A DNA stretch of 35,903 bases, taken from NCBI GenBank assembly GCA_003990765.1, contig RBNJ01000233.1:1-35903 (forward strand), read 5' to 3'. The notes under the pieces are model-generated. The model was not told where the DNA came from. It did no database searches and saw nothing but the letters and a program-made list of their open reading frames with translations. Shown in pieces: positions 1 through 26,151 of this stretch (position 1 is its first letter; every line of letters begins with the position of its first letter). Source of the DNA: Jimgerdemannia flammicorona (lineage: Eukaryota). Both the position numbers and the translations under genes were made by a program.

Positions 1-3000
1 AAAGAAAAGCCAAAGAAAATGATCAGCCCCCAGAGCTTCAAGCTGACAGTGACGATGAGGAGGAACAAGAATCAGACATCACTCTCAAGGTCAAGAAGTT
101 TTACCCTGAAGCCAAGATCCCAGAATACAAGACTGAAGGAGCCATAGGAATGGACCTTGCCAGCATTCAAGATGCTACTCTTGAACCACAGACCACCACC
201 CTACTTGGCACTGGAATTGGAGTCAAGCTGCCAAAAAACCATGCTAGAATTATCAAGACCAGGAGCAGTCTGGCCAAAAGCGAAATCTCAGTTGAAGGAG
301 GAGTAATTGACTCTGATTATACTGGCGAGATCTTCCTCATAGTCAGAAATCACAACCACACCACCCCCTTCAAAGTCAAGAAGCATGACAGGATTGGCCA
401 GATGCTGATCCACGAAGTCAAGAAGCCAAAGATCATAGAAGCCATTGAACTCATCAAGACCAAGAGAGGAGAACAAGGCTTTGGATCTACTAGAAGAGGA
501 GCCTATGCCACTACTAAGATTATCAAACCTGAGCACAAGAAAGACAAGGACCAGAATAAGTACACATATACTATTGGAGAAAACTTTCCCCTGAAGGAAC
601 AACTTCTCAAGATCCTGTACCAGAATGAAGAAGTACTTGCTACAGACTTTAGGGATATCTACAATCAAGAACCCAAGTACTACCATAAAGTTGACACTGG
701 TGATATCAAGCCTATCTACCAGAAAGTCAGACCTATACCACCTGCCTACAGAGAGTGGCTGCGAGCAGAACTCAAAGAAATAAAAGAAGCTGGAATCATT
801 AAGCAAGCTATTAGCCCCTGGGTCTCACCCATTGTCCTAGTCCTGAAGAAAGGAAGCAAGCCTGGAGAGTTTGTGCTAAGACTCTGCATTGATTACAGGA
901 AACTTAATACCATCACCAAGAAGGATAGGCAGCCCTTGCCAAATATTCAAGAAATCCTTATCACCCTTGGAAGTAAAGCCAAATACTACACCACCTTGGA
1001 TCTGTTCTCAGGCTTCCATCAGATTAGTCTCACTTAAGATGCCAGTGAGAAATCAGCCTTCATCACATCTGATACCACCTATATCTATCTGTGAATGCCA
1101 TTTGGAATGTGCAATGCCCCAGTAAGTTTCCAGCAAATGATGAATAGAGTCTTCAGTAACGAGATTGGAAAATGGCTCTTTGTCTATGTTAATGATGTGA
1201 TCATCTTCAGCAACACTGCATGGGAACATGTCAATCACATACAGCTAGCCCTCAAGAGGCTCAAGGAGCATGGCCTCTATATCAAGCTCAAGAAATGCAA
1301 GTTTGCAGCTCAAGAAATTGCCTACCTAGGACACCTCATCAATCAGACTGGAATCCATACAGACCCCATGAAGATCAAGGCTGTTGCAGCCTACCCAAGA
1401 CCCAGAATAACTACAGAAGTCCACACCTTCCTTGGACTGACCAGCTACTACAGAAGATTCATCAAAGGATACTCCAACATTGCAGCACCTATCTATGAGC
1501 TACTGAAGAAGGAGACCAAATTTGAATAGACCAAGGAGGGCCAAGAAACCTTCAATAAACTCAAGACCAGGTTGATCCAAGCACCCATTCTCCGAAGACC
1601 AGACTGGAACCTAGAATTCATCCTGCAGACAGATGCGAGTGCTATAGGACTTGGAGCAGTCCTAGCTCAGAAGCAAGATGGACATGAATATGTCATCTCT
1701 TATGCAAGCTGAGGTACACATAAAGCAGAACAGAACTACAAGTTATGTAAGCTTGAATACATAGCAGTAGTTTGGGCAGTAGATAAGTTCCACTACTATC
1801 TAGCTGGGAAACACTTTACCATTCAAACAGACCATTCTGCTCTTGCTTAGCTATTCCACACTCTGAACCCCAAAGGAATATATATCAGATGGATCCACAG
1901 GCTACAAGAGTATAACTGTACTGTCAAGCACCACTCAGGAAAGACCAACACCAATGCCAATGCACTCTCAAGGACATCCCAAAACACTCTATCAAGACTA
2001 TTCAACATGAATAAGGAGCTATACTATGGATTAATTAGCTATTTTGGGCAGTGGAAGATGCCCAACCACCTTGAACCCTGGACAATCACCATCACCAACC
2101 AGACTTAGAAACAGTTTGAATTAGACAACACCACACTCAGAAAAGGAGGAAAGCTAATAATACCTGAACACAAGAAGTATTAAGTAATGAAGGAAGTACA
2201 TGAGCAAGGATACTTAGGAGGAACCAATATATATAATAAGACAAGAAGAACTATATGGTGGCCCAAGATGGAAGAAGACCTGTGCCAATTTGTCAAAGAG
2301 TGTGACAAGTGCCAAAAACAGAAATAAGATTAGCAAGACCAGACACCTGAGTCATCAAGAATTGAGCCTATCCTCTTCCACCACATCACAATAGATATCA
2401 TTGGACCACTACCAGTAACACTATCAGGAAACCGCTATATTATAGTTATTGTAGACCTCTTCACCAAATAGATAGAGGTAGGAGTATTACAAGAAGCCAA
2501 TGCTCTCTCTATAGCTGACTTCCTATACCGAGAAATCATCTGCCGCTACAAGACACTAAAGTAAATCATAACAGACCATGGAATGGAATTTGTTAATGGA
2601 TTCTATAAGATAATGTATCAGAAATACAAGATCCAGCATATCAAGACCACCACATACCACCCTCAAGGAAATGGACAGACAGAGAGAACCAACAAGACTC
2701 TCAAGAACATCCTAGTGAAGATCTCAGAGATATATGAGAATTGGGATAACTATCTCCCAACTGCCCTCTCTGTCCTATGAGACATATAGTCACAGAGTAC
2801 ACATTTTACCCCAAGAGAGCTGCTCTTTGGAGAAGAAGATTCTGATAGAACCTCAGCCACAAATCTAGACCTAACTTGGAGATAGGTTGATGCAGAAATC
2901 CAGAGACTACACCAAATCAGGAAGAAGGCTGAAGATTACATCACCAAGTTATAAGCACTGACAAGGAAGAATGCAGAAAAGAATCACAAGGCCCTAGAAC

Positions 3001-3254
3001 CCATCTGAATTGGAGAAAAGGTTCTACTGTATTGAAATATGGTAGAAGCCTCATGGTCATGAAAACTGGAGCCCAAATAGGAAGGACCCTTCTATGTGCA
3101 AGATATCAAGAGAACTACCTTCTGGCTTAGAAAAATCTCAGAGACCATACTGCCTACTATGGTACATAGGAACAGACTCAAGAAGTACTACAAACTTATA
3201 TAAGAGAAGCAAAATATGATGACTGCCCATGAGGTTCTAGTCTGCGAATCATAA
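1..3254 (+). pseudogene. pol: pol polyprotein of element A (dUTPase, RT, RNase H, integrase), with in-frame stops
   Basis: RT motifs SPWVSPIVLV.KK, RLCIDYRKLN, LDLFSGFHQI, MPFGMCNAP and YVND (decayed YxDD, 1185-1196). RNase H LQTDASAIGLGAVLAQ and TDHSAL. Integrase zinc finger ending in CDKC, YHPQGNGQTERTNKTLK, and GPF motif. Stop TAA at 3252-3254. Confidence 0.93.
90..495 (+). CDS. dut: dUTPase domain of element A pol (within ORF 150..1037)
   Basis: All five trimeric dUTPase motifs are recognisable: AIGMDL, RSSLA, GGVIDSDYTGEI, RIGQML, RGEQGFGST. Confidence 0.93.
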
Positions 3255-3557
3255 CAGCATGTCTTGTGACCAGCAGGCTATCTGTCTGGACCATTCTCTA
3301 AGGGATACAGTACTGACAACTACTCATCTGTGAGACTTTCAAAGTCAGAGGAGTTCATACCATCAACTGATTGGTCAAGATCAGAATCAGGCCCTTGCTC
3401 TATATGAAGGGAGCAATTCTTCACCATCATGCCAAAATACAAAGGGAAGACACCAGCTCATAAACACCACTTTTTGACCCCTTGCCTGAGGTTATGGGAC
3501 CAGCAAATTTTTCAGGACTAGACCAATGAATAAGGATACTCAAGAAGATCCTTATTC

Positions 3558-3567
3558 AAGAGGAAGA
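3558..3567 (+). promoter_or_regulatory. Polypurine tract of element A
   Basis: AAGAGGAAGA directly abuts the LTR start TGTAAT at 3568. Confidence 0.8.
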
Positions 3568-5101
3568 TGTAATAGTGACCCCAGAATGATAACATCAGCA
3601 CAGGAGACAGCCTTTCCTTACAAGCCACCAGATCAGAGCACAAGAAGATCATATGGCATACAAGATAAGCAATGATGACCAACTGTGAGTCATTGTGACC
3701 ACAGTACAAGCATTCTGAAGAATATAAAAGAAGGATCAAGGAACTGCAGTAGCAGCAACCACCAATCCCAAAATAACTCAAAGACTTACCACAAACGAAA
3801 TACCTACTGCCCGCCAAACCTCAAGGTCAAGGAACTATCAAGGTACCTTAGTTGAAGAAAGGATGTTCTAAGACATCAGAAGAGCCATGGAGACCCACTC
3901 AAGAAGGACTCCCAGTGTCAACCTGAGTACTGCAGATTCCTATCACTTTATCCTCTACTGCCATGAAATGGAAACAAGGATCACTATTGCTACCAAATGT
4001 CTCCAAATGTGGTAGGAGTATGAAATAGGAAACCTTCTCTGCTGGGAGTTCTCACAGGCCAGCACCCAAGAGCTACAAGATGCCACTTCCATGGATATAT
4101 ACGAAACAAGGACAGCTAAGAAGATCCATCAGATCTTCAGGCATGCACCATAGTCAATCCCCAACTTGGAGTATGTTAGAGTCTCAGACTTCAGAGATCT
4201 GTCATCCCGCCATATCAATGTACTAGAAGCCAGGGTGGCTACGGAAGCCCAGTCTACTATCACCCTCAATAGTGATGAAGTAGAAGACTTCTAGCACCCC
4301 ATTCTTCAGGACAACCCAGACCAATTTCTGTAAGGATTGATCTCAGTATTCTAGGGCCTAAGTATCTGGATTAGATCTCCCCAAGACCCCACATTTGTCC
4401 CCTATTTTGTAGAAGAGAACCTCATAGACTAGAGAGCTCCAGATCTTGTTCCTGATTTCCCCACTACAGCCGAATGTGATGACATCATCGGTGATGATGT
4501 CATCCCATGTGACATCGAAGCACATGAAATGCACAACCTGCATGACGAATTCATAGACCTCATCTCCTTCAATGATGATGATGATGAGGATGAAGCCCCC
4601 ATGGTCCTGAACTTTCTGCTCTAAGTTCTTTGTTATACTGGATAATGCCAGCACTGATATTCTCATGTATCACTGGATAATACCAACACTAGTATTCTGA
4701 GGTGATGCGAAATTGTTCCAGCACCAGTATTTTGATGTGACACTAAATAATGCCAGCATCCTGAACCTGTACAACCATCAGTGCCAACCCTGAAACTTAG
4801 TAGTTTTAGTTATTGGAATTTATATTTAGCTTTATATCTTAGCAACTATTGAATTATATTTTGTATAAATACTCCTCTCATTTCCTTTGAAATAAAGTCA
4901 GTTCTGGTTTCACTTATACACACTTCCTTGCAAGCAATCTAAGAGATAACAAGACAGTTAAAGATAAGAAGTTTGAGGACTATAAGACCTTGAGAAGATA
5001 CTCCAATAAGAACTTACTTACAACAAACTTGAGTTAGTCTAAGAGATACATTTTGAAGAGAATCTGACATATTTGAAGGACTCAGTGACCACTATGTGAC
5101 A
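3568..5101 (+). repeat. 3' LTR of element A (1534 bp), contains an ORF
   Basis: TG...CA ends. Matches both LTRs of B. TATAAATA at 4864-4871 and AATAAA at 4891-4896. Confidence 0.93.
3800..4624 (+). pseudogene. LTR-encoded ORF (~274 aa), decayed copy
   Basis: Colinear with intact ORF 24545..25357. Start ATG mutated to ATA, several TAG/TAA stops from TGG/CAG/CAA, same end (LNFLL*). Confidence 0.85.
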
Positions 5102-6250
5102 GTATATAGCTTGTTCTTCAACAGCACTTCTAAAGTTCCAATAAGGGTATAGAATCCTATACATTCTTGAAAATTTAACAAGAATAGGTTAGTAAAGAAA
5201 ATCTCAAAAAAAAGATAATGAATATAGAGAATTTCAGAAAAAACTCTGGGGAACCTATTCTTTATCAATATTATAGTATACTCAATTCTCATCCAAACTC
5301 CCCCTCTTTGCTTTTTATACTCTCTCTTTCCTACTATCTGGTATTTGATACAATCCTTGCAAATCTTATTAATATAATAATAAAACTTATTACTATAGAC
5401 ATTTCTTACCCTATTACAATAACCTCTCTATATTCATTAATAATGATATGGTTCTCTTTGTCATTAAATACTCCAGCAGGCTAATGGACTCCTTGATTGA
5501 GAATAATTAGCTCCAATTTAAATTTAGACCCCCAAGTCTTGATAGTAATACTAATATTGCTCATGCTGAATAACTTGCTCTCAAACTTCTCTATTTCATC
5601 AGATGCTAAATATAGTTGAACTTGGGTAACTTTGAATTCTCCTCTATAGTGGAACTGAGTCTTGATCTGAGTAGTGGGCTGAGTTAAGATTATATATAAG
5701 TATTATATAGAAATTTTTAGGAGAGAATACATAAAAATGAAGTTAAATAAAATATAGAGTGAGTATTTAGAAATGAGTATAAGAATGAGTTACATGTAGA
5801 TGAGTTGTACAAGATTGCTCATAAAGGCTTACTTCTGATCCTTTTGAGATCTCTACCATGTGATATATTGACTCAATAGCTTAGCCACCAAAAGCATATC
5901 TCACAATATTCTCCAGTCTTTCTTCATCTTGACTAGATATTGTGAATAAAGTCAGCAGATCTTACTGTAGAGCTATAGACTCTAAAAAAAAGAAGAACAG
6001 CATGAAATAAACTTGGTCATATTATGGGAATTTAAATATAATAGTGAAAAGGCAATCTATATCTACTATTAGCTATTCTAAAAAGGATACTATATATATA
6101 GCTATGAGATTTATAAATTCCAAGATCTAAAGAGTTATTGTGAGTTGTTTCTGAAATTCTCCCTCATCCTCATTATTGCTATTACCATTACTATTGCTAT
6201 CACTATTGCTACTACCACTTTGGCTCTTAATGAGTAGCTTGTATACTACC
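5102..6250 (-). pseudogene. 5' exons of the hAT cargo gene in copy H1
   Basis: Homologous to the minus-strand cargo exons of H2. The upstream limit is approximate. Confidence 0.55.
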
Positions 6251-6631
6251 TATATGAGAAAGAATTTTATATTGTTAGCAGAGAGTACTTTTCTATCTTA
6301 AATATTCTCTCTTTTGATGATCATTAGGTAAAAAAATGAGTAGATCAATATATGATTAAGGGCTGCTATTTATTCATTCATGATATGGTAGAAGAAACAA
6401 AAATGAGCATTAGAGAATAAAGAAAGAGAGAATAAAGAAAGAAAGAATAAAGAAAGGGTAATATAACTAAAGATAAAGAAAGAGTGATATCACTAAAGAT
6501 TTCAAGTAATCTGGATTAAGTTGAATTAATCCAGATCAGATTATGGAACTAATCTGAGTTAATTTAAATCTATCACATAATGAATCTGAATTAAATCTTA
6601 TCTAGATAAATTGCATCTATTTAGAGCACTA
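5102..6631 (+). mobile_element. Right arm of hAT DNA transposon copy H1, interrupted by element A
   Basis: Homologous to ~15797-16846 joined to 25604-26151 of H2. Ends in TIR ...GCATCTATTTAGAGCACTA, preceded by ATC(C/T)(G/A)-rich subterminal repeats. Confidence 0.85.
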
Positions 6632-7605: not shown

Positions 7606-8542
7606 TGTAATAAGTAGTAGAATTATACTACTAAAATTATAAATTAGCTATATATCATATCTAATGTACCATGTAACTAAGACTGCTTTACTGTACCAAT
7701 CTGTATAATTAGTCAGAAATATCAGAAACAGTATGTTTACCTATTTCTGAACCAGTACACCATACTGGCCCAGTATACTATACTAGTCTAGGAATATTGT
7801 ACTAGTCCAGTATACTGTACCATTCAGAAATACTTACTATAGATAGTTATCTATAATTAGCCATAAAGCAATCAGATAGTAACTACTACTATATAAAATA
7901 TCCTAGAGATAAGAGTAAATAAATCTCAGTCTGAAAAGTTAAAGTACAAATCAAAGAAGTTACTAAAAATTGTGAGCATTAGTTCTCTTTTCTCTACTCT
8001 AGTCCACTTTCTAATATAAAGCTTAGAGATTTGCTATCATGTTCAAGTGAAGAACTTCACTATCTTTTGAAGAGAAATTCTTAGTCTACTTATCAGATAA
8101 GCCTGAAGTCTCTCTTGCTACAAAGTCAGTCTTTTGATATAACTTCACAGTCTACTTTCTAATATAAAGCTTAGATATTTGCTGCTAAGTTTAAGTAAAG
8201 AACTTCACTATCTTTTGAAGAGAAATTCTTAGTCTACTTGCTAGATAAGCCTGAAGTCCCTCTTGCTACAAAGTTAGTCTTTTGATATAACTTCACAGTA
8301 AACTTATTTGTATAAATAAAGGTAGTCTTGATATAACTTTGCCAAGAAAAGAATTCAAGTTATTATTCAAGAAGTCTACCATTCTCAGAGAGCCTGTCTT
8401 AAAAAATCTTGTCATAAGCCAGTCTTCTAATACAACTTTATAGTAGAGCCAGTTCTTGATATAACTCTATGTAAATAAAGCCAGTCTTTGATATAACTTG
8501 CCAGAAATTCCCATATCATCTGAGTTATTTAAGTTATCTAAA
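7606..8542 (+). repeat. 5' LTR of element D, left part
   Basis: TGTAAT start preceded by GTAT. TATAAAA at 7892 and AATAAA at 7918 in the same context as the other LTRs. GAGTTAT-type repeats continue on the far side of H2. Confidence 0.75.
8001..8299. repeat. 148-bp tandem duplication within the D LTR
   Basis: AGTC(C/T)ACTTTCTAATATAAAGCTTAGA starts at 8001 and again at 8149. Shorter AGCCAGTCTT..GATATAACTT repeats continue to ~8500. Confidence 0.9.
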
Positions 8543-8639
8543 TAATACTCTAAACAAGTCAATTCAAATTAAATATAGATTTGATTTATCATATGATAGT
8601 TTAACCCAAATCTCAAATCTAAAACAATCTAAATCAACT

Positions 8640-8880
8640 TGAATTAATCCAAATTACTCCATCTGACTCACTTTATCTAAATTACTCTATCTGAACTACT
8701 CTATCTGAACTACTCAATCCAAACCACTTAATCTGAATTACTCAATCCAAACTACTCAATCTGAATCACTCAATCCAAACCACTCAATCTGAACTACTCA
8801 ATCCAAACCACTCAATCCAAATCATCCCATTCAAATTATCCAATCCAAATTCTTTAATCCAAATCCTTCAATCTAAATCC
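8640..8880. repeat. 14-bp subterminal tandem repeats of hAT H2
   Basis: Unit ACTCAATC(CA/TG)AAC(C/T) occurs more than 10 times. The CA/TG alternation implies an ancestral CG. Confidence 0.85.
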
Positions 8881-9676: not shown

Positions 9677-12152
9677 TGTGACATCTACAATTGACCCTGT
9701 CCAAATTCGGAGTACCCTGTGACCACAAGATCAGACGATATAATGGCGTGACAATCAAATAGACAGCCTGACCCATTAGGTGATCATCCCAAAAGAAGAC
9801 AAGAAGATCCGAGCCAAAATGAAGACCACGTTATTTAAGGAACCCTACTTCGCCTCAGGGATCGGCACCAAAGAACCAAGTACCCATCATACAATGCCTC
9901 CCACTCGCTGAACCAACCAGACCTCCCGCCGCTCTACCCCTCTGCCTGGCCCAAAGACCCTGATCTTTGAAGCTATCAAGAAGGCCATCTGGCGCCCAGA
10001 TACTTCCGAATACTTGAACTTCTACACTGAGGACCTTGGACACTTCATCAACTACTGGTATACAATGACCCAACAGCTCAAAGACACTACCGAATGAATG
10101 ACCCTCTGGCATGACTATGAAATCGGACACCGCCTTCACAATGAGACTCAAGAAGGCGACCAGGAAGACCTCATTGCCGAAATGTTAACCACCAGCTGGC
10201 TAATCAAGAGAGCCCTCTGTGTCCATCAAATCTTCTGCCATATTCCCTGGGCTATAGCACACTTGCAAGGAGTAACAGCTGGTAGTCTCTCCCGCCTATC
10301 AACCGAAGATGCTGACTGGATAGAATCCGAAGAAGCCAATGCTATTGGCAGCAACTGCATTGCCGTAGGAAGCCAACAAACCGAACCTACTCAACCAGGT
10401 TTCCACATCACCCCGCTCCGAGACAACCATCAAGGTCACCTAATGAGTCTTATGGAGATATTTGAAGGACCACCCATCACTATAGAGACACCCGTTGGAG
10501 CTACCCCAACCACCCACCACCCTGTCAGCTACAATTCACACCTCATCATTTGGGAACCAAATCAAGAAGAAGCCCAAGAAGTTCTTGTCTTTGAAGAGGA
10601 GGCCCAAGAACTCCAAGACCCTGCCCCTGAGGAAACCCCCTCTGACACTGAAACTGACGAGCCTTCAGAAGAAGAAGAGGATCAACAGAGAGTCTACCAG
10701 TCCTCTGTCCGCATTCAAGCTATTCAAGGGTTGGAGAATGTTGTTGAAGATGACTGGCCACTTTTCTACCCCCTCACCTCTTGGCCAGCGCTTCCCCCTT
10801 TTGAGGAGAGATATGATGAAGAAGAAATCACAACCCAGCAAGATTTGCCCACCACAGATGAATGGTACTATTCCCTCTAGAGTACCGTCTATCAGCCGTG
10901 AGAACCAAGCTTTTGTCAGCAAGTCCATTTTCAGCATTGCTACCCCCCACAACTGTTTCTGGCAACAATCAGCAATCATGTCAGCTCATCCGAATCCAGC
11001 GTTGCTACCCAGTACCACCATTTTCAGCATTTTGTCAGCAAGTCCATTTTCAGCATTGCTACCCTCTACAACCGCTTCTGGCAACAATCGCCGCATCCAT
11101 ATCCGTCCGTATCAGCAAGTCAGCAAGTCCGAATCCTGCGTTGCTACCCAGCACAACCGAATCCAGCATTGCTATCCAGTGCAACCGTTTCTGGCATCTT
11201 GTCAGCAAGTCAGCCCTTCACATCATGCAAGCCAATAGCATAGCGAAGTTTGCCACAACATAGTATACCTTAGCCTTAGTCGCGCCCCCTCATAGCTAGC
11301 AAACTTGTATAAATAACCCATATTCTTAGAGTGAATAAACCTCAGCCAGATAGTTTTACAGAGAAAACACACTGCCTCCAAGAGACTGGATAAATTCTGA
11401 GAACAAGATAACAACCTAGAGCAACGGATTGCTCGGAAGTTTGAGTTAAGGAATTTTCTCTTGCCACGGAAAGAAAATGTTACCCAACCGCCACCATTCG
11501 AGACCCAAGTTACCCAGCCAAGGATTCAAGACCACGGACCGCCCGAATTTCCAATTTTGCTGCCACAAAAAGGATTTGAGACCCAGAAACCCAAGTTACC
11601 CAGCCAAGGATTCAAGACATGACCGCCGCGCATTCGGACCTCCACGCATTCGACCGCCATTCGAGATTCAAGACCCAGAAAACCAAGGAAACCCAAGGAT
11701 ACCCAGCTAAAGGATACTAGACCGCCAAAGACCGACCCACTGCCAAAGAACCGAACAACCGCCAGGAACCTAACAAGTTAAGACAGACGAGCGAGCCGTC
11801 AACCTCCGCTTCTCCGATTCCCGACCCACTGCGCCACGAACCACATAAAGAGCAAGACCATCAAGACCGTTGCCGCATAAATTCAAGTTTGCCGCCAAGT
11901 TAATCGCCACCAGGAACGCCCTTTTCCACTGGATATTGAGCCATTGAACAACCGAACGACCTCATCATCGACGTCCTGAGCCACCATCGTTGAACAATCG
12001 AAGTCCCGCTATTATCGCACAAATCGAACGACCTGTCACGTGACCATCGACCCGCGAACATCACCAATGCACTCATATCCATTGCGCACTCCACCAAGTG
12101 TCACACATTGAGCTGTGCAGTCGAAGTTCATTATACATAACCGAACGTCACA
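9677..12152 (+). mobile_element. Solo LTR C (2476 bp) of a related but diverged LTR family, CpG-rich
   Basis: TGTGAC...GTCACA inverted termini with ATAT on both sides. TATAAATA at 11308 and AATAAA at 11334. No PBS, PPT or gag/pol flanking it, and the host intron resumes. Confidence 0.88.
9894..10880 (+). pseudogene. LTR-encoded ORF of solo LTR C (~328 aa, acidic C-terminus), homologous to the A/B LTR ORF
   Basis: ATG at 9894 is in frame with ORF 10098..10880, broken only by TGA at 9909 and 10095 (likely CGA>TGA). Shares D..HFI.Y, W..YEIG, HQIF.H.PW and F.GP.I motifs with 24545..25357. Confidence 0.85.
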
Positions 12153-12389
12153 ATATATAAAGAGCTCACCAATTTAATCTCATATTTAATAAACAGAATT
12201 TGGCAGATAGAATTTCATTTACAATCAATACATAGACATCCCTCAATATAATTTTATTTCTGAGCATTACCAATCATTAGATTGACCTCAATTGACAACT
12301 TAACTCTCTTATTCTTAACTTTATCAAAATTGCTGGTCCTCATTCTGGAGAAAACATCATGGATGCTTTTATTAGTTATATCTAAGAGC

Positions 12390-12699
12390 TAGTGCTCCTA
12401 ATGAATGATTCAATTTGAGGTCTGATTTGAACCCTATTTTTCAAAATATAGTAACTCAATGAATATATATCTAAATTCAATGGTATTTAGCTTGATAGAT
12501 TCATCTTATATAGAAAAATCTAATAAGCTAAAGATAATTGAATTTAAATATGTATTTATCAAGTTATTATATTTTGAAAAATAGGATTCAAATTGGACCC
12601 TCAATTTAATTCAAATTCAATTTAATTCAAACTTGATTCAAATTGAAAAATCCCCAATTCAATTCAATTCAAATTGATTTGATTTATTTGAGAGTACTA
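12390..12699. mobile_element. hAT-type MITE (310 bp)
   Basis: Termini TAGTGCTC / GAGTACTA and a ~36-bp internal inverted repeat (TTGAGG..ATTTGAA.CCTATTTTTCAAAATATA). 8-bp TSD CTAAGAGC / CTGGGAGC. The transposase frame resumes across it. Confidence 0.85.
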
Positions 12700-14506
12700 C
12701 TGGGAGCTTGAGATAATAACTAAAATAAAAAGAGAGGACTTACCATCTGATCAGTATTTTGAGAGAAGTCTTAAAACAAAACAGATTTTAATAATTATTT
12801 ATTTTTACATAAATTTGCCAACTAAAAATTTCAAGTACAGATTTTGGCCATTGTGATGAATAATATCACAAATAACTCAACATTTTTCTAAAATTTAACA
12901 GCCAACCTTCAATAGAAAAATATACCCTTTAGTATAGAAAACTGCTATATATATTATCAGGTCCATATACCGAACCTTGCTGTTCAGAATTAGCTTATAC
13001 ATATAGACAAAATATCCAGAAGTGAAGGAACTCTGAGTATTATCTCCAAGCTGTACAAACTGATTATATTGGTCTAATCATCTCTACAATGATAAGAAAA
13101 ATTTGCTACACAGTATGTATATAGCAATCAGTTTAGTTCTGAAAGAGTTGATATTAAATATCTATATATATTAGAACTCAATATTTGCAATAATTCAGTA
13201 TATATTGAAGTTTGCTATAGTATGTGTTCTTTTTTTAATTAGCTAAAGTAAATTGTTTTGAATGACTGAGGATTGTTAATTAATTTTAAAACAAAATTTT
13301 TCTTAAAAAAAAAAAAAAAAGATAAAAGTGAGTAGGATGTACTAAGGAATATTGTTAGAGTTTTGAAAGTAAGTGATAATTGCTTTGACTCTATATTCAT
13401 TTATCTATCTCTACATAGTAATATAATAATTTACTATTCTTAACTACCAGTGTTTTAAAAATAAACTATCTTGACAATAAGCTCTATAATACTAATATAT
13501 AATCTTCTGATTGATTGACTAGAGGATAAGCTCAAGAAAAGACTGGAGAGTAGTGGTGATTTCTAGTTTAGCCTGGATCAGAAAGATGCTGTAGAGGTTG
13601 CTCTGAGCAAGCTTAGAAAATACTACTCCAAAATAGATATCACTATATACTCAATTAGTATAGATATATGTATTAGTATAGTAGTTACCTCTTCCAAAAA
13701 AGAGAAACTCTTACAAAACTCACTCTCTTTCTCAAAACAGTGTTAGATCTATACTTAAAGCTACAATACCACAAAAATCAGGGCTGGGAGCAGTACTACA
13801 TTGAGAAAGTCAAGCAAGTTATAATAAAAACATACTGGAAAAACTATGTACTATTATAAGATTCTGGTCAAAGTTCAGATAAATATACTGAAGGATCTCT
13901 TCTATTATATATTTACTTCAGCAGAAAGAGGAAGAGAGAGCTATTAGTGAAAGAACTGCCACCAATAGATAAACTCACCATTTACCTCATTAGTAACTAT
14001 ATGATCCTGCTGGAGGATATAGAGCTGATGGAAGGTGGGTTGTCTTTTTACAGATGGTTAGTGGGGTTAGGCCATCATTCTGACTACTATTCTGACTACT
14101 ATTCTAACTATCATTCTATCCCCTAGGATATGTAGCCACAGATATATCAAACAGACTTTCTCAGCCTATGTAATATGACTCAGAACTATTTGATCATTTC
14201 TGCTATCAGTACTCCAGTTGAGTAGGTATTCTCTGATAGAGTGGATCTTATTTCTTCTAAGAGATGTATGCTGAATACTAAGGCAATCTAGGTCTATATG
14301 TACCTAAAGTCTTAGTAAGGTATGGGCTGCTAAAATTTGGTAAGTTCTGCAACATTAAATAAAAAAGAGTCAGAAATAAATTATTTTTTATAAATTATTT
14401 AAAAAATAAAAATAAAAGAGAAAGTTCAGCTCAGGGTACAAGATGGCAGATAGAGAGAGCATACTGGTATTTGTGGCCCTCTGTCTGCCCAAGTGGGGTA
14501 GAGGTC

Positions 14507-15109
14507 AGTGAAGTTATTGATAGAGAGAGTATGCAAAATTTGCAGCCCTCTACTGGCAACAAGGGGTAAGTTCAAGCTATAAGTTGGTGTAGAAGTCCAG
14601 ATTAGAGAGAGCATGTAGAATTTGCAGCTCAATGATCTACTGTAAGAAGCAACTTCAAGCAGATCAGACTCTGGTATAGATTTGGGCCCCATAGGCACCC
14701 TGGTTCTGTACTGCAGCACCATATTAGTAGTACTCCAAAGTGGGGTCAAGGGACCAGTAGAGCTCAGCAAAAGTTCAAACTAGTGCTACAAAATAAGATT
14801 AGTGAGGTTGACAGAGAGAGTATGCAAAATTTACAGTCCTCTATCAGTAACAAGAGATAGCCCCAAGCTACAAGCTAGTGTAGGAGTCTGAATTAGAGGA
14901 AGTATACAGAATTTGTAGTCCAATGATCCACTGCAAGAAGCATCATCAAGCAGTCAGACTCCAATACAGATCAGACTTCAATACAGATTGAACTCTAGTA
15001 TAAATTCAGACCCCTGGCTCGGTGCTGTAGTACTGTACCAGCAGTGCTATAATATAGGGCTAAGAGACTAGTAGAGCTCAGCAAAAAGCTAAAAACTAAT
15101 GCTACAAAA
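14507..15109. repeat. ~295-bp diverged tandem duplication between transposase and cargo gene
   Basis: GAGAGAGTATGCAAAATTT...AGTAGAGCTCAGCAAAA...GCTACAAAA occurs twice, with units starting at 14507 and 14801. Confidence 0.85.
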
Positions 15110-15184
15110 CAGTTATCTAACTCTCACAAAAGACTACTCAATCTTCACAAAAAGACTGTTTAGTCTAATCTTTACAAAACTGCT

Positions 15185-16380
15185 CTACTCATCAGGCTCA
15201 GGCCTTGATGAGCTTATCATCTATTGTGAGTACAATAACTATAGTATCTGAGCTCTCCTCAAAGATAATAGTGTCATAGAGGTCATATGGTTAGAATAGG
15301 ACAGCTGTATTGGCCACAAACAGGACTCTAAAACTATAGACAAGGTTATATCAGATACTACCACTATTCTTCCAAGTTGGGCCCTTTCTTTCTAGAATAT
15401 AAAATATTATCAGAGTAATATTGCTGTCTGTATGTGTGAGTAGAGAAACATTATACCTAATATATTCTGATGTAAACCCTTGGCCCAGGATCTCATATTA
15501 CCAAACAGTGCTAGAGAATGTCTGCCTTTCATCTAGTCCTAAGAGCTCTGGCTTAGAAATCTACTAAAATAGACAGTATCTAGTTAATTCTTTTTGCATA
15601 CAGGGGAGTAGAAACCCTCAGGCTACACCAAAAAAAAGTCAAGCTCCTCACCTTATATGGTATACTAAATTGCATCAAGAATGTATATATAGTAATACTG
15701 AGAGTACTACTAAGCTAGTCTGCTGTTTGCTCCAGCAATCTGCTCAAAGAACTCCAGATCATGGCCACTATTGCCATATAGACCATGTTATGCTTATATG
15801 TAGCTTATTCTTTAATAGCACTTCTAAAAATCTGATAAGAGTACAGAATCCTATATATCTCTGGAAATTTAATAAGAATAGAATAGTAAAGAAAATCTCA
15901 AAAAAAAGAAAGACAAATATAGAGAATTTCAAAAAAAAACTCCAAAGAACTCACTCTTTACCAATATTACAGTATATTCAATTCCCATCCAAAGTTCCTC
16001 TCTCTGCTTTTTACACTCCCTCTTTTCTGCCAATCAGAATTTGATACAATTCTTATAAATCTTATTAATATAGCAATAAAGCTCATCAATATAGAGATTT
16101 CTTACCACTATCATAACAACCTCTCTATGTTTGTTAATAATGATATAGTTCTCTTCATTATTGAGTACTCTAGTATTCCAATGAATTCCTTGATTGAGAA
16201 TAATTGGCTCTAATTTGAATGTAGACCTCCAAGCCTTGATAGTAATACTAGTATTACTCATACTGAATAACTTGTCCTCAAACTTCTCTATTTGATCAGA
16301 TGCTAGATGTAGTTGAACTTAGATAACTTTGAATTCTCCTCTGTAGTAGAACTGAACCTTGATCTGAGTAGTGGGCCAAG
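15185..16380 (-). pseudogene. hAT cargo gene, putative TET/JBP-like 2OG-Fe(II) dioxygenase (decayed; further 5' exons probably extend to ~25750, split by element B)
   Basis: One minus frame reads GFTSEYIRYNVSLLTHTDSNITLIIFYIL..KNSGSI*YNLVYSFRVLFVANTAVLF*PYDLYDT. HxD is at 15426-15434. YDT (15270-15278) is two transitions from HGT. GTGAGT..TTTCCAG intron at 15954-15861; the upstream exon includes ORF 16034..16261. Confidence 0.55.
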
Positions 16381-16846
16381 TTAAGTATGTGGACAGATTA
16401 TGTGTGCATATTATATAGAAGTTTTTAGGAGAGAATATATAAAAATGAAGTTAAATAAAATACAGAGTAAGTATTTATAAAAAAGTATGAGAATGAATTA
16501 CATATAGATGAGTTGTATGCAGATAAGTTGTATGCAGATAAGTTGTATAAGATTGCTCATAAAGACTTACTTCTGATCCTTTTGAGATCTCTGCTATATG
16601 ATGTATTGACTCAATAGCTCAGTTACCAAAGGCATATCTTATAACATTCTCCAGCCTTTTTCCAGCCTTTCTTCATCTTGATCAGATATTGTGAATAAAG
16701 TTAGCAGATCTTGCTATAGAGCTGTGGACTCTGAGAAAAAGAGAAATAGTATAAAATAAACTTGGTCATACTATAGAAATTTAAATATAGTGGTAAAAAG
16801 GCAACCTATATCTACTATTGACTGCTCTAAAAAGACTACTACATAT

Positions 16847-18368
16847 TGTCATGTAGTGGTCACTGAGTCCTTCAAATATGCCAGATTCTCTTCAAGATGT
16901 ATCTCTTAGACTAACTCAAGTTTGTTATAAGCAAGTTCTTATTAGAGTGCCTTCCCAAGGTCTTATAGTCCTCAAAATTCTTATCTTTAACTGTCTTGTT
17001 ATCTCTTAGATTGCTCGCAAGGAAGTATATATAAGTGAAACCGGAACTGACTTTATTTCAAAGGAAATAAGAGGAGTATTTATATAAAATATAATTCAAT
17101 AGTTACTAAGATATAAAGCTAAATATAAATTCTAATAACTAAAACTACTAAGTTCCAGAGTCGGTACTGATGGTTATACAGGTTCAGGATGCTGGCATTA
17201 TTTAGTATTATATCAAAATGCCAGTGCTGGAACAATTTTGCATTACCTCAGAATACCAGTACTAGCATTATCCAGTATTACATAAGAATACTGGTGCTGG
17301 CATTATCTAGTATAATAAAGAACTTAGAGCAGAAAGTTCAGGATCATGGGGGCTTCATCATCATCATCACTGAAGAAGATGAGATCCATGAATTCGTCAT
17401 GTAGGTTATGCATTTCACATATGTCGCATAGGATGACATCATTGCCAATGACATCATTACATTTGGCTGTGGCAGGGAAATCAGGAACAAGATCTGGAGC
17501 TCTCCAGTCTATGAGATTCTCTTCTACAAAATAGGGGACAAATGTGGGGTCTTGGGGAGATCTAACCCGAATGCTTGGGCCCTAGAATACTGAGATCAAT
17601 CCTTGCAGAAATTGGTCTGGGTTGTTCTGAAGGATGGGGTATCAGAAGTCTTCTACTTGAGGGTGATAGTAGACTGGGCTTCTGTAGCCACCCTGGCTTC
17701 TAGTGCATTTATATAGTGGGATGACAGATCTCTGAAGTCTGAGACTCTAACATACTTCAAGTTGGGGATCAACCATAGTGCATGCCTGAAGATCTGATGG
17801 ATCTTCTTAGCTGTTCTTGTTTTGCATATATCCATGAGAGTGGCATCTTGTAGCTCTTGGGTGCTGGCCTGTGGAAACTCTCAGCAGAGGAGATTTCCTA
17901 TTTCATACTCCTGCTATATTTGGAGACATTCGATAGCAATGGTGATCCTTGTTTCCATTTCATGGCAGTAGAGGATAAAGTGATAGGAATCTGCAGTACC
18001 CAGGTTGACACTGAGAGTCCTTCTTGAGTGGGTCTCTATGGCTCTTCTGATGTCTTGGAACATCCTTTCTTCAACTGAGGTATCTTGATGGTTCCTTGAC
18101 CTTGAAGTTTGGCAGGCAGTAGGCATTTCATTTATAGTAAGTCTTTGAGCTATTTTGGGATTGGTGGTTCTTGTTGGTTGCTGCTACTGTGGTTCCTTGA
18201 TCCTTCTTTTATATTCTTCAGGATGCTTGTACTGTGGTCACAATGACTCACAGTTGGTTATCATTGCTCATCTCATATACTGTATGATCTTCTTGTGCTC
18301 CAATCTGGTGGCTTGCAAGGAAAGGCTGTCTCCTGTGCTGATGTCATCATTCTGGGGTCACTGTTACA
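16847..18368 (-). repeat. 3' LTR of element B (1522 bp)
   Basis: TGTAAC...ATGACA on the minus strand; direct repeat of 24069-25599. Confidence 0.95.
17324..18126 (-). pseudogene. LTR-encoded ORF, decayed copy in the B 3' LTR
   Basis: Fragments 17914..18126 and 17653..17835 match 24545..25357, with stops and a 10-bp deletion near 17658. Confidence 0.85.
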
Positions 18369-18378
18369 TCTTCCTCCT
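18369..18378 (-). promoter_or_regulatory. Polypurine tract of element B
   Basis: AGGAGGAAGA on the minus strand abuts the 3' LTR. Confidence 0.8.
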
Positions 18379-18681
18379 GAATAAGGATCTTCTCGAGTGT
18401 CCTTATTCATTGGTCCAGTCCTGAAAAATTTGCTGATCCCATAACCTCTGGCAAGGGGTTGAAAAGTGGTGTTTATGGGCTGGCATCTTCTCTTTATATT
18501 TTGGCATGATAGTGAAGTGTCACTCCCTTCATATAGAGCAAGGGCCTGATTTTGATCTTGACCAATCAGTTGACAGTTCAAACTCCTCTGACTTCAAAAG
18601 TCTCATGGATGAGTAGTTGCCAGTACCATATCCCTTAGAGAATGGTCCAGACAGATAGCCTGCTGGTCATGGGACATGCTG

Positions 18682-21600
18682 TTATGATTCATGGACTAGA
18701 ACCTCACAGGCAGTCATCACATTTTGCTTCTCTTGTATAGGTTTGTGGTACTTCTTGAGTCTGTTCCTGTGTACTGTAGTAGGCAGTATGGTCCCTGAGA
18801 TTTTTCTAAGCCAGAAGATAGTTCTCTTGATATCTTGCACATAGAAGGGTCCTTCCCATTTGGGCTCTAGTTTTTGCGACCATGAGGCTTCTACCATATT
18901 TCGATACAGTAGAACCTTTTCTCTGATTTGGATGGGTTCTAGGGTCTTGTGATTCTTTTCTGCAATCTTCCTTGTCAGTGCTTGTGACTTGGTAATGTAA
19001 TCTTCAGCCTTCTTCCTGTTTGGTGTAGTCTCCAGATTTCTGCATCAACCCATCTCCAAGTTAGGTCTAGATTTGTGACTGAGGTTCCATCAGAATCTTC
19101 TTCTCCAAAAGCAGCTCTCTTGGGGTAAAATGTGTGCTCTGTGACCATATATCTCTTAAGACAGAGAGGGCAGTTGGGAGATAGTTATCCCAATTCTCAT
19201 ATGTCTCTGAGATCTTTGCTAGGATGTTCTTGAGGGTCTTGTTGGTTCTCTCTATCTGTCCATTTCCTTGAGGGTGGTATGCAGTGGTCTTGATATGCTG
19301 GATCTTGTATTTCTGATACATTATCTCATGGAATCTATTGACAAATTCCATTCCACAGTCTGTTGTGATTTGCTTTGGTGTCTTGTAGTGGCAGATGATT
19401 TATCAGTGTAGGAAGTCAGCTATAGAGAGGGCATTGGCTTCTTGTAATACTCCTGCCTCTATCCATTTGGTAAAGAGGTCTACAATAACTATAATATAGC
19501 AGTTTCCTTATAGTATTACTGGTAGTGGTCCAATGATATCCATTGCGATGTGGTGAAAGGGGATAGGCTCAATTCTTGATGACCCAGGTGCCTGGTCTTG
19601 CTGATCTTATTTCTGTTTTTGGTACTTGTCACATCCTTTGACAAATTGGCACAGGTCTTCTTCCATCTTAGAGCACCACATAGTTCTTCTTGCCTTGTCA
19701 TATATATTGGTTCCTCCTAAGTGTTCTTGCTCATATACTTCCTTCATTACTTGATACTTCCTGTATCTGGGTATTACTAGCTTTCCTCCTTTTCTGAGTG
19801 TGGTATTGTCTAATTCAAACTGTTTCCAAGTCTGGTTGATGATAGTGATTGTCTAGGGTTCAAGGTGGTTGGGCATCTTCTACTGCCCAAGGTAGCTGAT
19901 TAATCTATAGTATAGCTCCTTATTCATGTTGAATAGTCTTGGTGGGGGTGTTTTGGGGTGTCTTTGAGAGTGTATTGGCATTAGTGTTGGTCTTTTCTAA
20001 GTGGTGCTTGACAGTACAGTCATACTCTTACAGCCTGTAGATCCATCTGGTATATATTCCTTTGGGGTTCAGAGTGTGGAATAGCCAGGCAAGAGCAGAA
20101 TGGTCTGTTTGAATGGTGAAGTATTTCCTGGCTAGGTAGTAGTGGAACTTATCTACTGCCCAAACTACTACTAAGCATTCAAGCTTGCATGACTCATAGT
20201 TCTGTTCTGCTCCATAGATACCTCAGCTTGCATAAGAGATGACATATTCATGTTCATCTTTCTTCTGAGCTAGGACTGCTCCAAGTCCTATAGCACTTGC
20301 ATCTGTCTGCAGGATGAATTCTAGGTTCCAGTCTGGTCTTCTGAGAATGGGTGCTTGGGTCAACCTGGTCTTGAGTTTATTGAAGGTTTCTTGGCACTCC
20401 TTGGTCCATTCAAATTTGGTCTCCTTCTTCAGTAGCTCATAGATAGGTGCTGCAATATTGGAGTATCCTTTGATGAATCTTCTGTAGTAGCTGGCCAGTC
20501 CAAGGAAGGCATGGACTTCTGTGGTTGTTCTGGGTCTCAGATAGACTGCAACAGCCTTGATCTTCATGAGGTCTGTGTGGATTCCAGTCTGGTTGATAAG
20601 GTGTCCTAGGTAGGCGATTTCCTGAGCTGTAAACTTGCATTTCTTGGGCTTGATGTAGAGGCCATACTCCTTGAGCCTCTTGAGGGCTAGCTGTATATGA
20701 TTGATATGTTCCCATGCAGTGTTGCTGAAGATAATCACATCATCAATATAGACAAAGAGCTATTTTCCAATCTTGTTGCTGAAGACTCTGTTCATTATTC
20801 ACTAGAAACTTGCTGGGGCATTGCACATTCCGAATGGCATTCACAGATAGATATAGGTGGCATCAGGTGTAATGAAGGCTGATTTCTCACTGGTATCTTG
20901 AGTGAGACCAATCTGATGGAAGCCTGAGAACAGATCCAAGGTGGTGTAGTATTTGGCTTCACTTCCAAGAGTGGTAAGGATTTCTTGAATATTCGGCAAG
21001 GGCTGCCTATCCTTCTTGGTGATGGCATTGAGTTTCCTGTAGTCATTGCAGAGTCTTGGTACAAACTCTCCAGGCTTGCTTCCTTTCTTCAGGACTAGGA
21101 CAATGGGTGAGGCCCAGGGGCTGATATGTAGCTTGCTTGATGATTCCAGCTTCTTCCATTTCCTTGAGTTCTGCTCACAGCCACTCTCTGTAGGCAGGTG
21201 GTATGGGTCTGGCATTCTGGTAGATGGGCTTGGTATCACCAGTGTCAACTTCATGGTAGTACTTGGGTTCTTAATTGTGGATATCTCTAAAGTTTGTAGC
21301 AAGTACTCCTTTGTTCTGGTGCAGGATCTTGAGAAGTTATTCCTCCAGGGGAAAGTTTTCTCCAATGATATATGTGTGCTTGTTCTGGTCCTTGTCTTTC
21401 TTGTGCTCAAGTTTGATAATCTTGGTGGCAGCATAGGCTCCTCTTCCAGTAGATCCAAAGCCTTGTTCTCCTCTCTTAGTCTTGATAAGTTTGATGGCTT
21501 CTATGATCTTAGGCTTCTTGATTTTATGGATCAGCATCTGGCTAATCCTGTCATGCTTCTTGACTTTGAAGGGGGTGGTGTGGTTGTGATTTCTGACTAT

Positions 21601-23948
21601 GAGGAAGATCTCGCCAGTGTAATCAGGGTCAATTACTCCTCCTTCAACTGAGATTTTGCTTTTGGCCAGACTGCTCCTGGTCTTGATAATTCTGGCATGG
21701 TTTTCTGATAACTTGACTCTAATTCTAGTGCCAAGTAGGGTGGTGGTCTATGGTTCAAGGGTAGCATCTTGAATGCTGGTAAGGTCCATTCCTATGGCTC
21801 CTTCAGTCATATATTCTGGGATCTTGGCTTCAGAGTGAAACTTCTTGACCTTGAGGGTGATGTCTGATTCTTGTTCCTCCTCATCATCACTGTCAGCTTG
21901 AAGCTCTGGGGGCTGGTCATCTTCTTCAGCTTTCCTTTTTGCTTTGGTAGCTTCTTGCTCATGTTTCTGTTGGTGGATTTTCCTAACTTCACTGATACAG
22001 GACCAGCAGTCATTCAGGTGTTCAGAGCAGTACATTCTAGTACCATGGGGGCATCTTTCTTGAGGGGCATAGCCATTGATGATCTTATTATACCACTGCT
22101 CATCTGTGAGCTTGGATGTCTTGTTCTTGTTTTTGTTCACTGAGTGCATGAAGACCTCTGCATTCTCTTCATCTCCTTCCTCCATATCTGGTAGGACTCC
22201 TTTGTAGACATTGATAGAGACTTATACCTTTCTTCCTCTGTAGTTGATCTGCATCTTCTGGGCATTGAGGTCAATGATGGCCTTGGCCTTGTAAAGCCAT
22301 TGGTTGCTAATGAGGATGTATAGTTGGTGGCGCTTATAACAATCACATCTACTGGGATGGTAGCTACTCCTATCTTGATGGGGACTTCTCAGATTTTGTC
22401 AAGGGGGGTAGCTCATGTACCATCTACTATGACATAGACCATCTTGGTAGACTCTTCAATGTCCCAACCTAGGCAGTCAATTGCCTTCTTGCTCATGAGG
22501 TATCCTCCAGCACTAGTATCAATGATGGTATCAAAGATACAATCTTCAATCTGATATGGGGTATAGGCTGATGTCTTGCACTGGTCTTCAGATTCTTCAC
22601 CTGAGTTCTCAGATTCTTCCTGTACATTGTGAGCTTCTACAATCTTATATTCTTGATTCTTAGTGGTAGTTGCAAGTCCTACTCTCAACTGCTATCTGAA
22701 GGCAGGGACTTCAGCTAGCTGTCCAAAGGTAGCATTGACCTTCTGTTTCTTGAGATCCTTGTAGATATCATACTGGTGGATCTTGGTCTTGCACAGCTTC
22801 TGTTCCTTCTTGCTTTTGCTTTCTCCTGAGACTGGGGTAGTATCTTCAATAATTTGGCAGGCAGCTTCATCTAACTCCATGTCTTGATCAATCTCCTCAG
22901 GTTGAGTCTTGCTTTGAATAATGATGGCTGGGGTCTTCTTTGGTCTTCCAACTGGCTTGCTGTTGCTCTTCTTGTCATAGGGCTTGGACTGGGTTCTGGT
23001 ACCTTCAGTAGCAGGGTAGAATTCGAGCTCCTTGTAGTATTCTTCATCATCAGTGTCACCAATCTCCTCGATGACTACTGCATTGATTTGTTCTCTGGTT
23101 CTGCTTGCATTGCTTGGTTGGGCTTTGCATCTTGTTTCAGTCATGCAACTCTTTGTATAGTGGCCTTCTTCTCCACATCTAAAGCATGTGATATTGCATT
23201 CTTCTGTAGCAGCTACAAATCTCTGTACTGGTCTCCTGTTGATACTTCAGACTTCTCTAACAACATCACCAAGGTGTGCAGTCATTTCAGCAAACTGCTT
23301 GGCAAGTTCCTCCACTGGGTCAGCTTTGGCTATCTTGGGGGTAGGTGGGATTGATTGTCTGTTTATGACTGTGGTAGGTAAGATACTAGTTGGCTTTGAT
23401 GGCTCTATCTTGATGCTAGTTATTTTCTCCATTGAGTATTCAGCAAGATGTCTGGCAGTCCAATATCTCTGTACAAAGACCACTTTCTGATCAAGGGTCA
23501 GTGCAGCTGGGGTAGACCAGATTGCTAGAGCAATTTCAGGGTGAACTCCTTTGAGGAAGGTTGAATCTGCTATTTGTTCCTTGAGGTGGTCATCATAGCC
23601 AGCCAAGACAATCTGGTGGCAGATTCGAGTATAGAATGAGTTTGGATCTTCACTAAGTCCCTGGCAGATAGTATTGAGTTGATCCTTGAGAGCTTGCTTG
23701 ATCTCTTCGGTATAATATGTTGTTATGAGGAAGACCTTTATGTTGGCAAGTTTGGCTGCACTAGCATCAGCAATGGTGGCTGTATTGAACTTGTCTCTGG
23801 CAGGTCCTCTGAGGCTGACTGGTAGAAAGGCCAATTGAGCATCCACACCAAGGGTTTGTACAGCGGCGAATTGTTCAAAGTCTTCAATAAAGGTCAGAAT
23901 TGACTCTTCAGTAGTATATCCATAGAATGTGGGGGGATACATTTCCAT
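18682..23948 (-). pseudogene. gag-pol: gag-pol polyprotein of element B, probably ancestrally a single ORF of ~1750 aa
   Basis: Gag PPTFYG..EESILTFIEDF; zinc knuckle CFRCGEEGHYTKSC (23145-23186); protease IIDTSAG (~22515); dUTPase ~21440-21840; RT YIDD (20739-20750); RNase H QTDASAIGLGAVL; integrase YHPQGNGQIER and KLEPKWEGPF. Broken by transition stops and small frameshifts. Confidence 0.94.
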
Positions 23949-24048
23949 CTAGTCTTGAATTCTTGCAGGGGTAACTCTTGTTGTCAGGGTAGTTGTTGTG
24001 GGGGTTGTTTATTTTTCAGCTTGAAAGTGAGGGATTCATCTTGAATCA

Positions 24049-24065
24049 CCAGCCAATGGGCACCA
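24049..24065 (-). promoter_or_regulatory. Primer binding site of element B
   Basis: TGGTGCCCATTGGCTGG starts 3 nt after the 5' LTR. The first 9 nt resemble the tRNA-Lys-type TGGCGCCCA; tRNA identity is uncertain. Confidence 0.65.
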
Positions 24066-24068
24066 AGT

Positions 24069-25599
24069 TGTCACATAGTAGTTTCTGAGTCCTTCAAATA
24101 TGCCAGATTCTCTTTAAGATATATCTCTTAGACTAACTCAAGTTTGTTATAAGCAAGTTCTTATTGGAGTGCCTTCCCAAGGTCTTATAGTCCTCAAACT
24201 TCTTATCTTTAACTGTCTTGTTATCTCTTAGATTGCTTACAAGGAAGTGTGTGTAAGTGAAACTGGAACTGACTTTATTTTAAAGGAAATAAGAAGAGTA
24301 TTTATACAAAATATAATTCAATGGTTGCTAAGATATAAAGCTAAATATAAATTCTAATAACTAAAACTACTAAGTTCCAGAGTCGGTACTGATGGTTGTA
24401 CAGGTTCAGGATGCTGGTATTATTTAGTATCACATCAAAATACCAGTGCTAGAACAATTTCACATCACCTAGAATACCAGTACTGGCATTATCCAGTGTT
24501 ACATGAGAATACCAGTGCTGGTATTATCCAGTGTAATAAAGAACTTAGAGCAGAAAGTTCAGGATTATGGGAGCTTCATCATCATCATCACTGAAGGAGA
24601 TGAGATCTGCAAATTTATCATATAGGTCATGCATTTCATATATATCACATGGGATGACATTATTGCCAATGGTGTCATCACATTTGGCTGTGGTGGGGAA
24701 ATCGGGAACAAGATCTGGAGCTCTCCAGTCTATGAGGTTCTCTTCTACAAAATAGGGGACAAATGTGGGGTCTTGGGGAGATCTAACCTGGATACTTGGG
24801 CCCTGGAATACTGAGATCAATCCTTGCAGGAATTGGTCTGGGTTGTTCTGAAAGATGGAGTGCCAGAAGTCTTCTACTTCATCACTATTGAGGGTAATAG
24901 TGGACTGGGCTTCTGTAGCCACCCTGGCTTCTAGTGCATTGATACAGCAGGATGACAGGTCTCTGAAGTCTGAGACTCTAATATACTCCAAGTTGGGGAT
25001 TGACCATGGTGCATGCCTGAAGATCTGATGGATCTTCTTAGCTGTCCTCATTTTGTATATATCTATGGGAGTGGCATCTTGTAGCTCTTGGGTGCTGGCC
25101 TGTAAGAACTCCCAGCAGAGGAGGTTTCCTATTTCATACTCCTGCCACATTTGGAGGCATTCAGTAGCAATGGTGATCCTTGTTTCCATTTCACAGTAGT
25201 AGAGGATAAAGTGATAGGGATCTGCAATACCCAGATTGACACTGGGAGTCCTTCTTGAGTGGGTCTCCATGGCTCTTCTGATGTCTTGGAACATCCTTTC
25301 TTCAACCAAGGTGCCTTGATAGTTCCTTGACCTTGAGGTTTGGCAGGCAGCAGGCATTTCATTTATGGTAAGTCTTTGAGCTATTTTGGGATTGGTGGTT
25401 CTTGTTGGTTGCTGCTACTGTGGTTCCTTGATCCTTCTTTTATATTCTTCAGGATGCTTGTACTGTGGTCACAATGACTCACAGTTGGTCATCATTGCTC
25501 ATCTCATATGCTATATGATCTTCTTGTGCTCTGATCTAGTGGCTTGCAAGGAAAGGCTGTCTCCTGTGCTGATGTCATCATTCTGGGGTCACCATTACA
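24069..25599 (-). repeat. 5' LTR of element B (1531 bp)
   Basis: TGTAAT...GTGACA on the minus strand. TATA at 24306-24299 and AATAAA at 24279-24274. Confidence 0.95.
24545..25357 (-). CDS. Intact 270-aa LTR-encoded protein of unknown function (acidic C-terminus)
   Basis: Open from ATG to TAA, wholly inside the LTR and on the element sense strand. A homolog is present in solo LTR C. Confidence 0.82.
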   Translation of the reverse strand: MPAACQTSRSRNYQGTLVEERMFQDIRRAMETHSRRTPSVNLGIADPYHFILYYCEMETRITIATECLQMWQEYEIGNLLCWEFLQASTQELQDATPIDIYKMRTAKKIHQIFRHAPWSIPNLEYIRVSDFRDLSSCCINALEARVATEAQSTITLNSDEVEDFWHSIFQNNPDQFLQGLISVFQGPSIQVRSPQDPTFVPYFVEENLIDWRAPDLVPDFPTTAKCDDTIGNNVIPCDIYEMHDLYDKFADLISFSDDDDEAPIILNFLL

Positions 25600-26151
25600 A
25601 TATATAGCTATGAGATCTATAAATTCTAAGATTTGAAGGATTACTGTAAGTTATTACTAGAATTCTCCCTCATTCTTATCATCACTATTACTATCATTAT
25701 TACTATCACTACTACTACTTTAGCTCTCAATAAGCAACTTGTGTACTATCTATATGAGAAAAAATTTAATGTTGTCAGCAGAGAGTACTTTCTATCTTGA
25801 ATATTCCCTCTTTTAATAATTATTAGGTATAAAAATGAGTAGACTAATATACAATTAAGAGCTGCTATTTATTTGTTCATAATATAACTAGAGAAATAAA
25901 AAAGAGTATCAGAGAATAAAGAAAGAAAAATATTACTAAAGTTAAAGAAAGAGTAATATCACCAAAGATAAAGAAAGGGTAATATTACTAAGATAAAGAA
26001 AGGGTAATGTCATCAAAAATTTCAAGTAATCTAGATCAACCTGGATTAATCCAGATCAGATCATGAGACTAATCCAAGTTAATTCAAATTCATCATATAA
26101 TAAATCTGAATCAAATCTCATTCAGATAAATTGCATCTATTTAGAATACTA

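Follow-up and report, generated by a model that had tools for sequence, protein, structure and literature searches.

Genes of the TET/JBP family are known from eleven lineages of DNA transposons, hAT and ten others (Kojima 2025, PMC12730594, cited here and below from the part of that paper accessible to us). Among hAT transposons they were described in hAT7 elements of Puccinia, which encode proteins of the PU type and have 7-bp target-site duplications (TSDs). The PE type of TET/JBP proteins is very divergent, bears an HxE hallmark and was recognised only through structure-based comparison, with HHpred e-values of 1.4 and 19; the accessible part of PMC12730594 does not report it on hAT elements. 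The same source cites CcTET as an enzyme that oxidises 5mC and 6mA. Our literature search found no other publication on hAT elements with TET genes. The first-pass annotation of the DNA studied here had held that TET/JBP genes have no established association with hAT, a statement that is out of date because PMC12730594 describes them in hAT7 of Puccinia. As hAT-borne TET/JBP genes are already reported in that paper, the element described below is a divergent addition to what is known, a new family within the published phenomenon of transposon-borne TET/JBP genes.

We analysed a window of 35,903 nucleotides, this being the whole stretch of DNA under study. With a probability of roughly two in three, we interpret the locus as an old, dead hAT copy with a plus-strand transposase at its left and, in its right arm, an opposite-strand gene of three exons that encoded a 2OG/Fe(II)-dioxygenase-like protein some 300 residues long, whose closest counterparts are the PE-type TET/JBP-like proteins borne by other fungal DNA transposons.

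A hAT element among nested repeats

Self-comparison of the window revealed nested repeats that include two Ty3/Gypsy elements, A (1-5109) and B (16846-25599), and two copies of the hAT element. The principal features are as follows.

5103..6631, plus strand: hAT copy H1, right arm only, from exon 1 to the right terminal inverted repeat (TIR) at 6614-6631; from self-comparison, cut at 5103-5109 by Gypsy A
12190..14321, plus strand: hAT transposase remnant that lacks its N-terminal part and is interrupted by a MITE; from a Dimer_Tnp_hAT match and motifs seen by eye
12390..12699, no strand assigned: 310-bp MITE bounded by the TAGTG terminal repeats that the hAT copies also have; its target duplication of 8 bp occupies 12382-12389 and 12700-12707
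14426..15110, no strand assigned: spacer separating the two convergent genes and containing a tandem repeat of roughly 291 bp; from self-comparison
15168..16261, minus strand: decayed three-exon dioxygenase-like gene; from GT-AG introns, an in-frame join and homology to two proteins, P0001 and P0002
16846..25599, minus strand: Ty3/Gypsy element B, nested, splitting the right arm; LTRs at 16846-18368 and 24068-25599, RVT_1 (E 1.6e-07) and rve
25600..26151, plus strand: rest of the right arm, with subterminal repeats of 26 bp and, at 26134-26151, the right terminal repeat; from self-comparison

The only Pfam match of the transposase remnant is Dimer_Tnp_hAT (PF05699) at its C-terminus (about 14148-14312; E 0.0086 and 16.3 bits, below the cut-off of 21.4; profile positions 28-82 of 84). 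Transposase-like motifs at 12203-12223, 12335-12355, 12856-12876 and 12958-12990, seen by eye only, are what we take to be hAT-like catalytic-core motifs; when 24 further read-through transposase pieces were compared with Pfam, none gave a relevant match and no core family was detected. The remnant adjoins a CpG-rich stretch at about 12135, and the element's left end, like the N-terminal part of the transposase, is therefore missing or displaced. For the large element, no left end was found within the window. Two candidates for it were rejected: CAGATAGA at 12204 reads as a transposase coding motif, and the terminus at 12390 has flanks that agree with the right flank at 0/8 positions, against 6/8 when it is read as an end of the MITE.

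The short terminal inverted repeats of hAT elements begin with the consensus YARNG, which the TAGTG termini of this element fit. Its terminal repeat, TAGTGCTC, is present at 12390 (plus), 6631 (minus) and 26151 (minus). The terminus shared by both hAT copies (reverse complement, TAGTGCTCTAAATAGATG) lies at 6614-6631 and, with two transitions, at 26134-26151; beyond it the flanks of the two copies differ, and similarity stops there. In the MITE, the plus-strand terminus at 12390 has its inverted partner at 12699, and the flanking duplications, CTAAGAGC and CTGGGAGC, are identical at 6 of 8 positions, both mismatches being G/A; it is at this related MITE that the 8-bp target-site duplication of the hAT superfamily is found. 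This MITE also contains an internal 99-nt palindrome (12408-12610) and is inserted in a transposase remnant of its own family. Near the right terminus of both copies are 26-bp subterminal direct repeats (25890-25995 and 6395-6500), possibly binding sites for the transposase, and elsewhere, at 8001-8296 and 8601-8866, a tandem 148-bp duplication accompanies an array of 14-nt period whose AATCCAAAC-like units resemble the hAT subterminal motifs.

The dioxygenase-like gene occupies part of the right arm of the hAT-type element and, as first annotated, converges with the transposase remnant, with about 850 bp between the two. That annotation also placed both genes within one pair of TIRs. The gene occurs together with the right TIR in 2 of 2 copies; the sole left-hand TIR (12390) belongs to the MITE. 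The gene was further said to be present in copy H1, and its N-terminal part is. H1 matches the second copy only at 15797-16846 and 25600-26151, the two being about 80-84% identical, and it covers exon 1 and intron 1 together with the first 64 nt of exon 2, with a frameshift and stops of its own. The region of the C-terminal motifs is absent from H1 and would lie past the Gypsy insertion and the edge of the window.

These boundaries bear on whether the gene is hAT cargo at all, or instead part of another element, or host DNA, that came to lie beside a hAT remnant by chance. Adjacency to a transposase in one copy only, and a left end that was not found, would both suit such an accident, which we nevertheless consider improbable: in 2 of 2 copies the gene stands at an equal distance from the TAGTG terminus at which similarity ends, and a MITE with the same termini is flanked by an 8-bp TSD.

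The repeats of the window are strongly decayed. Their ratio of observed to expected CpG is 0.0-0.12, against 0.64 at 10000-12000. Nearly all differences between copies are transitions, with ratios to other changes of 119 to 3 in the LTR pair, 410 to 20 for the two Gypsy copies and 139 to 16 for the two hAT copies; among polarised C>T changes, 76 of 121 are at CpA, and the rate per site is highest at CpG. C>T and G>A transitions have ruined both the transposase gene and the dioxygenase gene, leaving neither of them functional.

Several further features accompany these repeats. The two Ty3/Gypsy copies are about 91% identical and each lies inside a different hAT copy; B, which is full length, has LTRs of 1.5 kb that are 92% identical. 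The LTRs at 16846-18368, 24068-25599 and 3568-5109 show an extreme transition bias, which points to a process of hypermutation or deamination that extends beyond CpG. A further reverse-transcriptase fragment lies at 31722-32051 on the plus strand (RVT_1, E 8e-06). The GC-rich island at 10000-12135, which retains its CpGs, abruptly adjoins the decayed hAT remnant and includes a 260-aa open reading frame (10098-10880) with no Pfam match, as well as internal repeats at 10911-11211.

A decayed three-exon gene with two metagenomic homologs

The dioxygenase-like gene was resolved into the following parts.

16261-15955, 15860-15652 and 15560-15168, minus strand: exons; introns at 15954-15861 and 15651-15561
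15426..15434, minus strand: HTD, still intact, which presumably supplied two of the metal ligands of a facial triad, the first and second; invariant in 3/3 sequences
15270..15290, minus strand: PYDLYDT, a mutated PHDLHGT in which the codon for the second His now encodes Tyr; from alignment with P0001

The two introns, of 94 and 91 nt, are both canonical GT-AG and link three frames into 909 nt of joined, in-frame sequence with 9 stops, in agreement with the intron-containing minus-strand gene proposed earlier. The motifs on which that proposal had drawn (HTD, NSGSI*YNLVYSFRV and AVLF*PYDLYDT) all fall in a single minus-strand frame, 15201-15560. By eye, exon 1 carries E.V..V.RN, and an N-x5-H stands before the first ligand.

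We compared the last exon (15201-15560, stops read through as X) with 1,835,955,588 representative proteins at E values up to 0.001. Only two matched: P0001 (136 aa, 67% identical, E 1.2e-42) and P0002 (134 aa, 41% identical, E 2.6e-13), neither of them named and both from short ENA metagenome contigs. In the reverse direction, tblastn of P0001 against the window gave an E value of 1.8e-51. Word-index protein searches revealed no longer or nearer relatives, and scans of JGI metagenomes with protein patterns and one DNA pattern returned no match.

Both homologs retain the HTD...GG...LFQPHDLHGT arrangement (HTDNN, then GGIWYDL or GGSFWYNL, then DLHGT), and in both the HxD...H facial triad is complete; the window has kept HTD and lost the second His to Tyr. 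The residues that had earlier been restored by reverting C>T and G>A changes proved to be those of P0001, in which H, G, Q and W occupy the positions that read Y, D or stop in the window. Of the stops within the stretch that aligns with P0001, 6 of 6 stand at a Q or W of that protein, relative to which the window copy also has 21 nt deleted.

With no open frame and 9 stops, one might ask whether the motifs are simply a chance pattern in AT-rich junk. The exact joining of the exon frames and the E values to an independent protein refute this, and we give it practically no weight.

Fold and family of the encoded protein

The family is invisible to ordinary profiles. Pfam, including both Tet_JBP entries (PF12851 and PF20515) and with E values up to 10, yielded no 2OG family match for any of six read-through constructs or for either homolog. 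Pfam comparison of 12 pieces of open reading frame and the long read-through frames gave no relevant family, PHROGs and NCBIfam profile searches gave no match for the gene family, and a sequence search of the PDB with the family profile retrieved no oxygenase, only a chance coatomer match (E 0.96). AlphaFold, run on three-sequence alignments, produced two models with pLDDT of 38.7 and 36.2 and no usable fold. Of the dioxygenase layout first proposed, HxDxD...GG...LF.P.DLHGT, the HxD...H arrangement is supported, HTD...HGT being intact in the homologs; the family drew neither a 2OG profile match nor a usable model.

Leads came from the ESM Atlas. Searched by features, P0001 was placed nearest to two clusters of unnamed Basidiomycota proteins (0.95 and 0.93) and then to a cluster assigned to PF20515, 'Tet-like 2OG-Fe(II) oxygenase' (0.91, with 178 features in common). 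Searched by structure, 8 of 10 rows were named or classed as 2OG-Fe(II) oxygenases at TM 0.54-0.63; these neighbours depend on the Atlas's own model of P0001 (pLDDT 0.69) and serve as leads, not as tests. Exon 1 alone scored 0.81 with low recognition and added no lead.

A second source of evidence is a comparison by eye with PE-type TET/JBP proteins, whose blocks appear collinear with ours and most similar near the second His, and which likewise lie beyond ordinary profiles (PMC12730594). The block GG..Y...YG.RV..AANT....QP.D.HGT is identical at 18 of 35 positions, ungapped, to the EnSpm-22_AB row of Table S1 of that paper, a by-eye count that carries no statistic. The N-x5-H before the first ligand and the E.V..V.RN of exon 1 belong to the same by-eye match with PE-type rows. 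Together with the Atlas leads, this resemblance suggests that the product probably had a dioxygenase fold, and it makes membership of the TET/JBP group a plausible assignment.

Alternatively, the gene might come from a different 2OG/Fe(II) dioxygenase subfamily, either prolyl-hydroxylase-like or 2OG-FeII_Oxy_3/5-like; it would then have been captured from the host, and its product would neither act on DNA nor take part in silencing. Clusters of P4H, PF13640 and PF13759 are indeed among the structural neighbours at the same TM of 0.54-0.63, no Tet_JBP profile matches, and the 2OG-binding Arg is missing, its position after the second His being occupied, by eye, by Thr in both P0001 and P0002. 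However, the best named cluster by features is the Tet-like one, and the collinearity seen by eye is with transposon-borne PE-type rows (PMC12730594); we regard another subfamily as unlikely, though a less distant prospect than a gene that is not hAT cargo.

Relation to described elements and significance

Read as a hAT element in which a TET/JBP-like gene accompanies the transposase, within a fungal-type genome that is CpG-depleted and rich in repeats, the locus resembles the TET-bearing hAT7 elements of Puccinia (PMC12730594). It departs from the account of hAT7 given there in several respects. The TSD, seen at the MITE, is 8 bp and so falls outside hAT7; hAT7 termini begin CAACGG or CAACAG, whereas those found here have the TAGTG start given above; in three named hAT7 families the TET/JBP gene precedes the transposase and is oriented like it, whereas here the gene follows the transposase and faces it; and the protein resembles the PE type rather than PU. 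Within the PE comparison, the window and both homologs have HTD where the PE type has HxE, and P0001 and P0002 have Thr in place of the Arg that follows the second His in the PE, PU and AG rows of PMC12730594, an Arg that in PE rows is part of the next strand. With CcTET and the AG type on Kyakuja and Zisupton (KDZ) elements, the locus appears to share the association of fungal TET-family enzymes with transposons, but no sequence match to them is detectable and the transposase superfamily differs.

These features raise the possibility, which we put a little below even, of a hitherto undescribed transposon-borne TET/JBP-like lineage, PE-like but bearing HxD and lacking the Arg that usually binds 2OG, on canonical hAT elements with 8-bp TSDs. 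If this is true, the lineage would represent a new pairing of dioxygenase and transposon, possibly with an altered cofactor mode or activity; the absent Arg raises the question of whether it handles 2OG in the usual way.

In an intact element, the transposase would cut and paste at the TAGTG terminal repeats, leaving 8-bp target duplications, and the dioxygenase would oxidise a methylated base, probably 5mC, on the DNA of the element itself. Such oxidation may have countered both methylation-based silencing and the C-to-T decay of the element. An anti-silencing role for the carried enzyme is speculation, and the same speculation is made in PMC12730594.

The locus is a further, independent example of a TET-like gene on a DNA transposon and fits the published idea that such genes aid the escape of transposons from methylation-based silencing (PMC12730594). 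Because protein databases contain almost no members of this family (2 of 1.84 billion representative proteins) and Pfam does not see it, similar cargo genes have probably been missed in repeat-masked fungal genomes.
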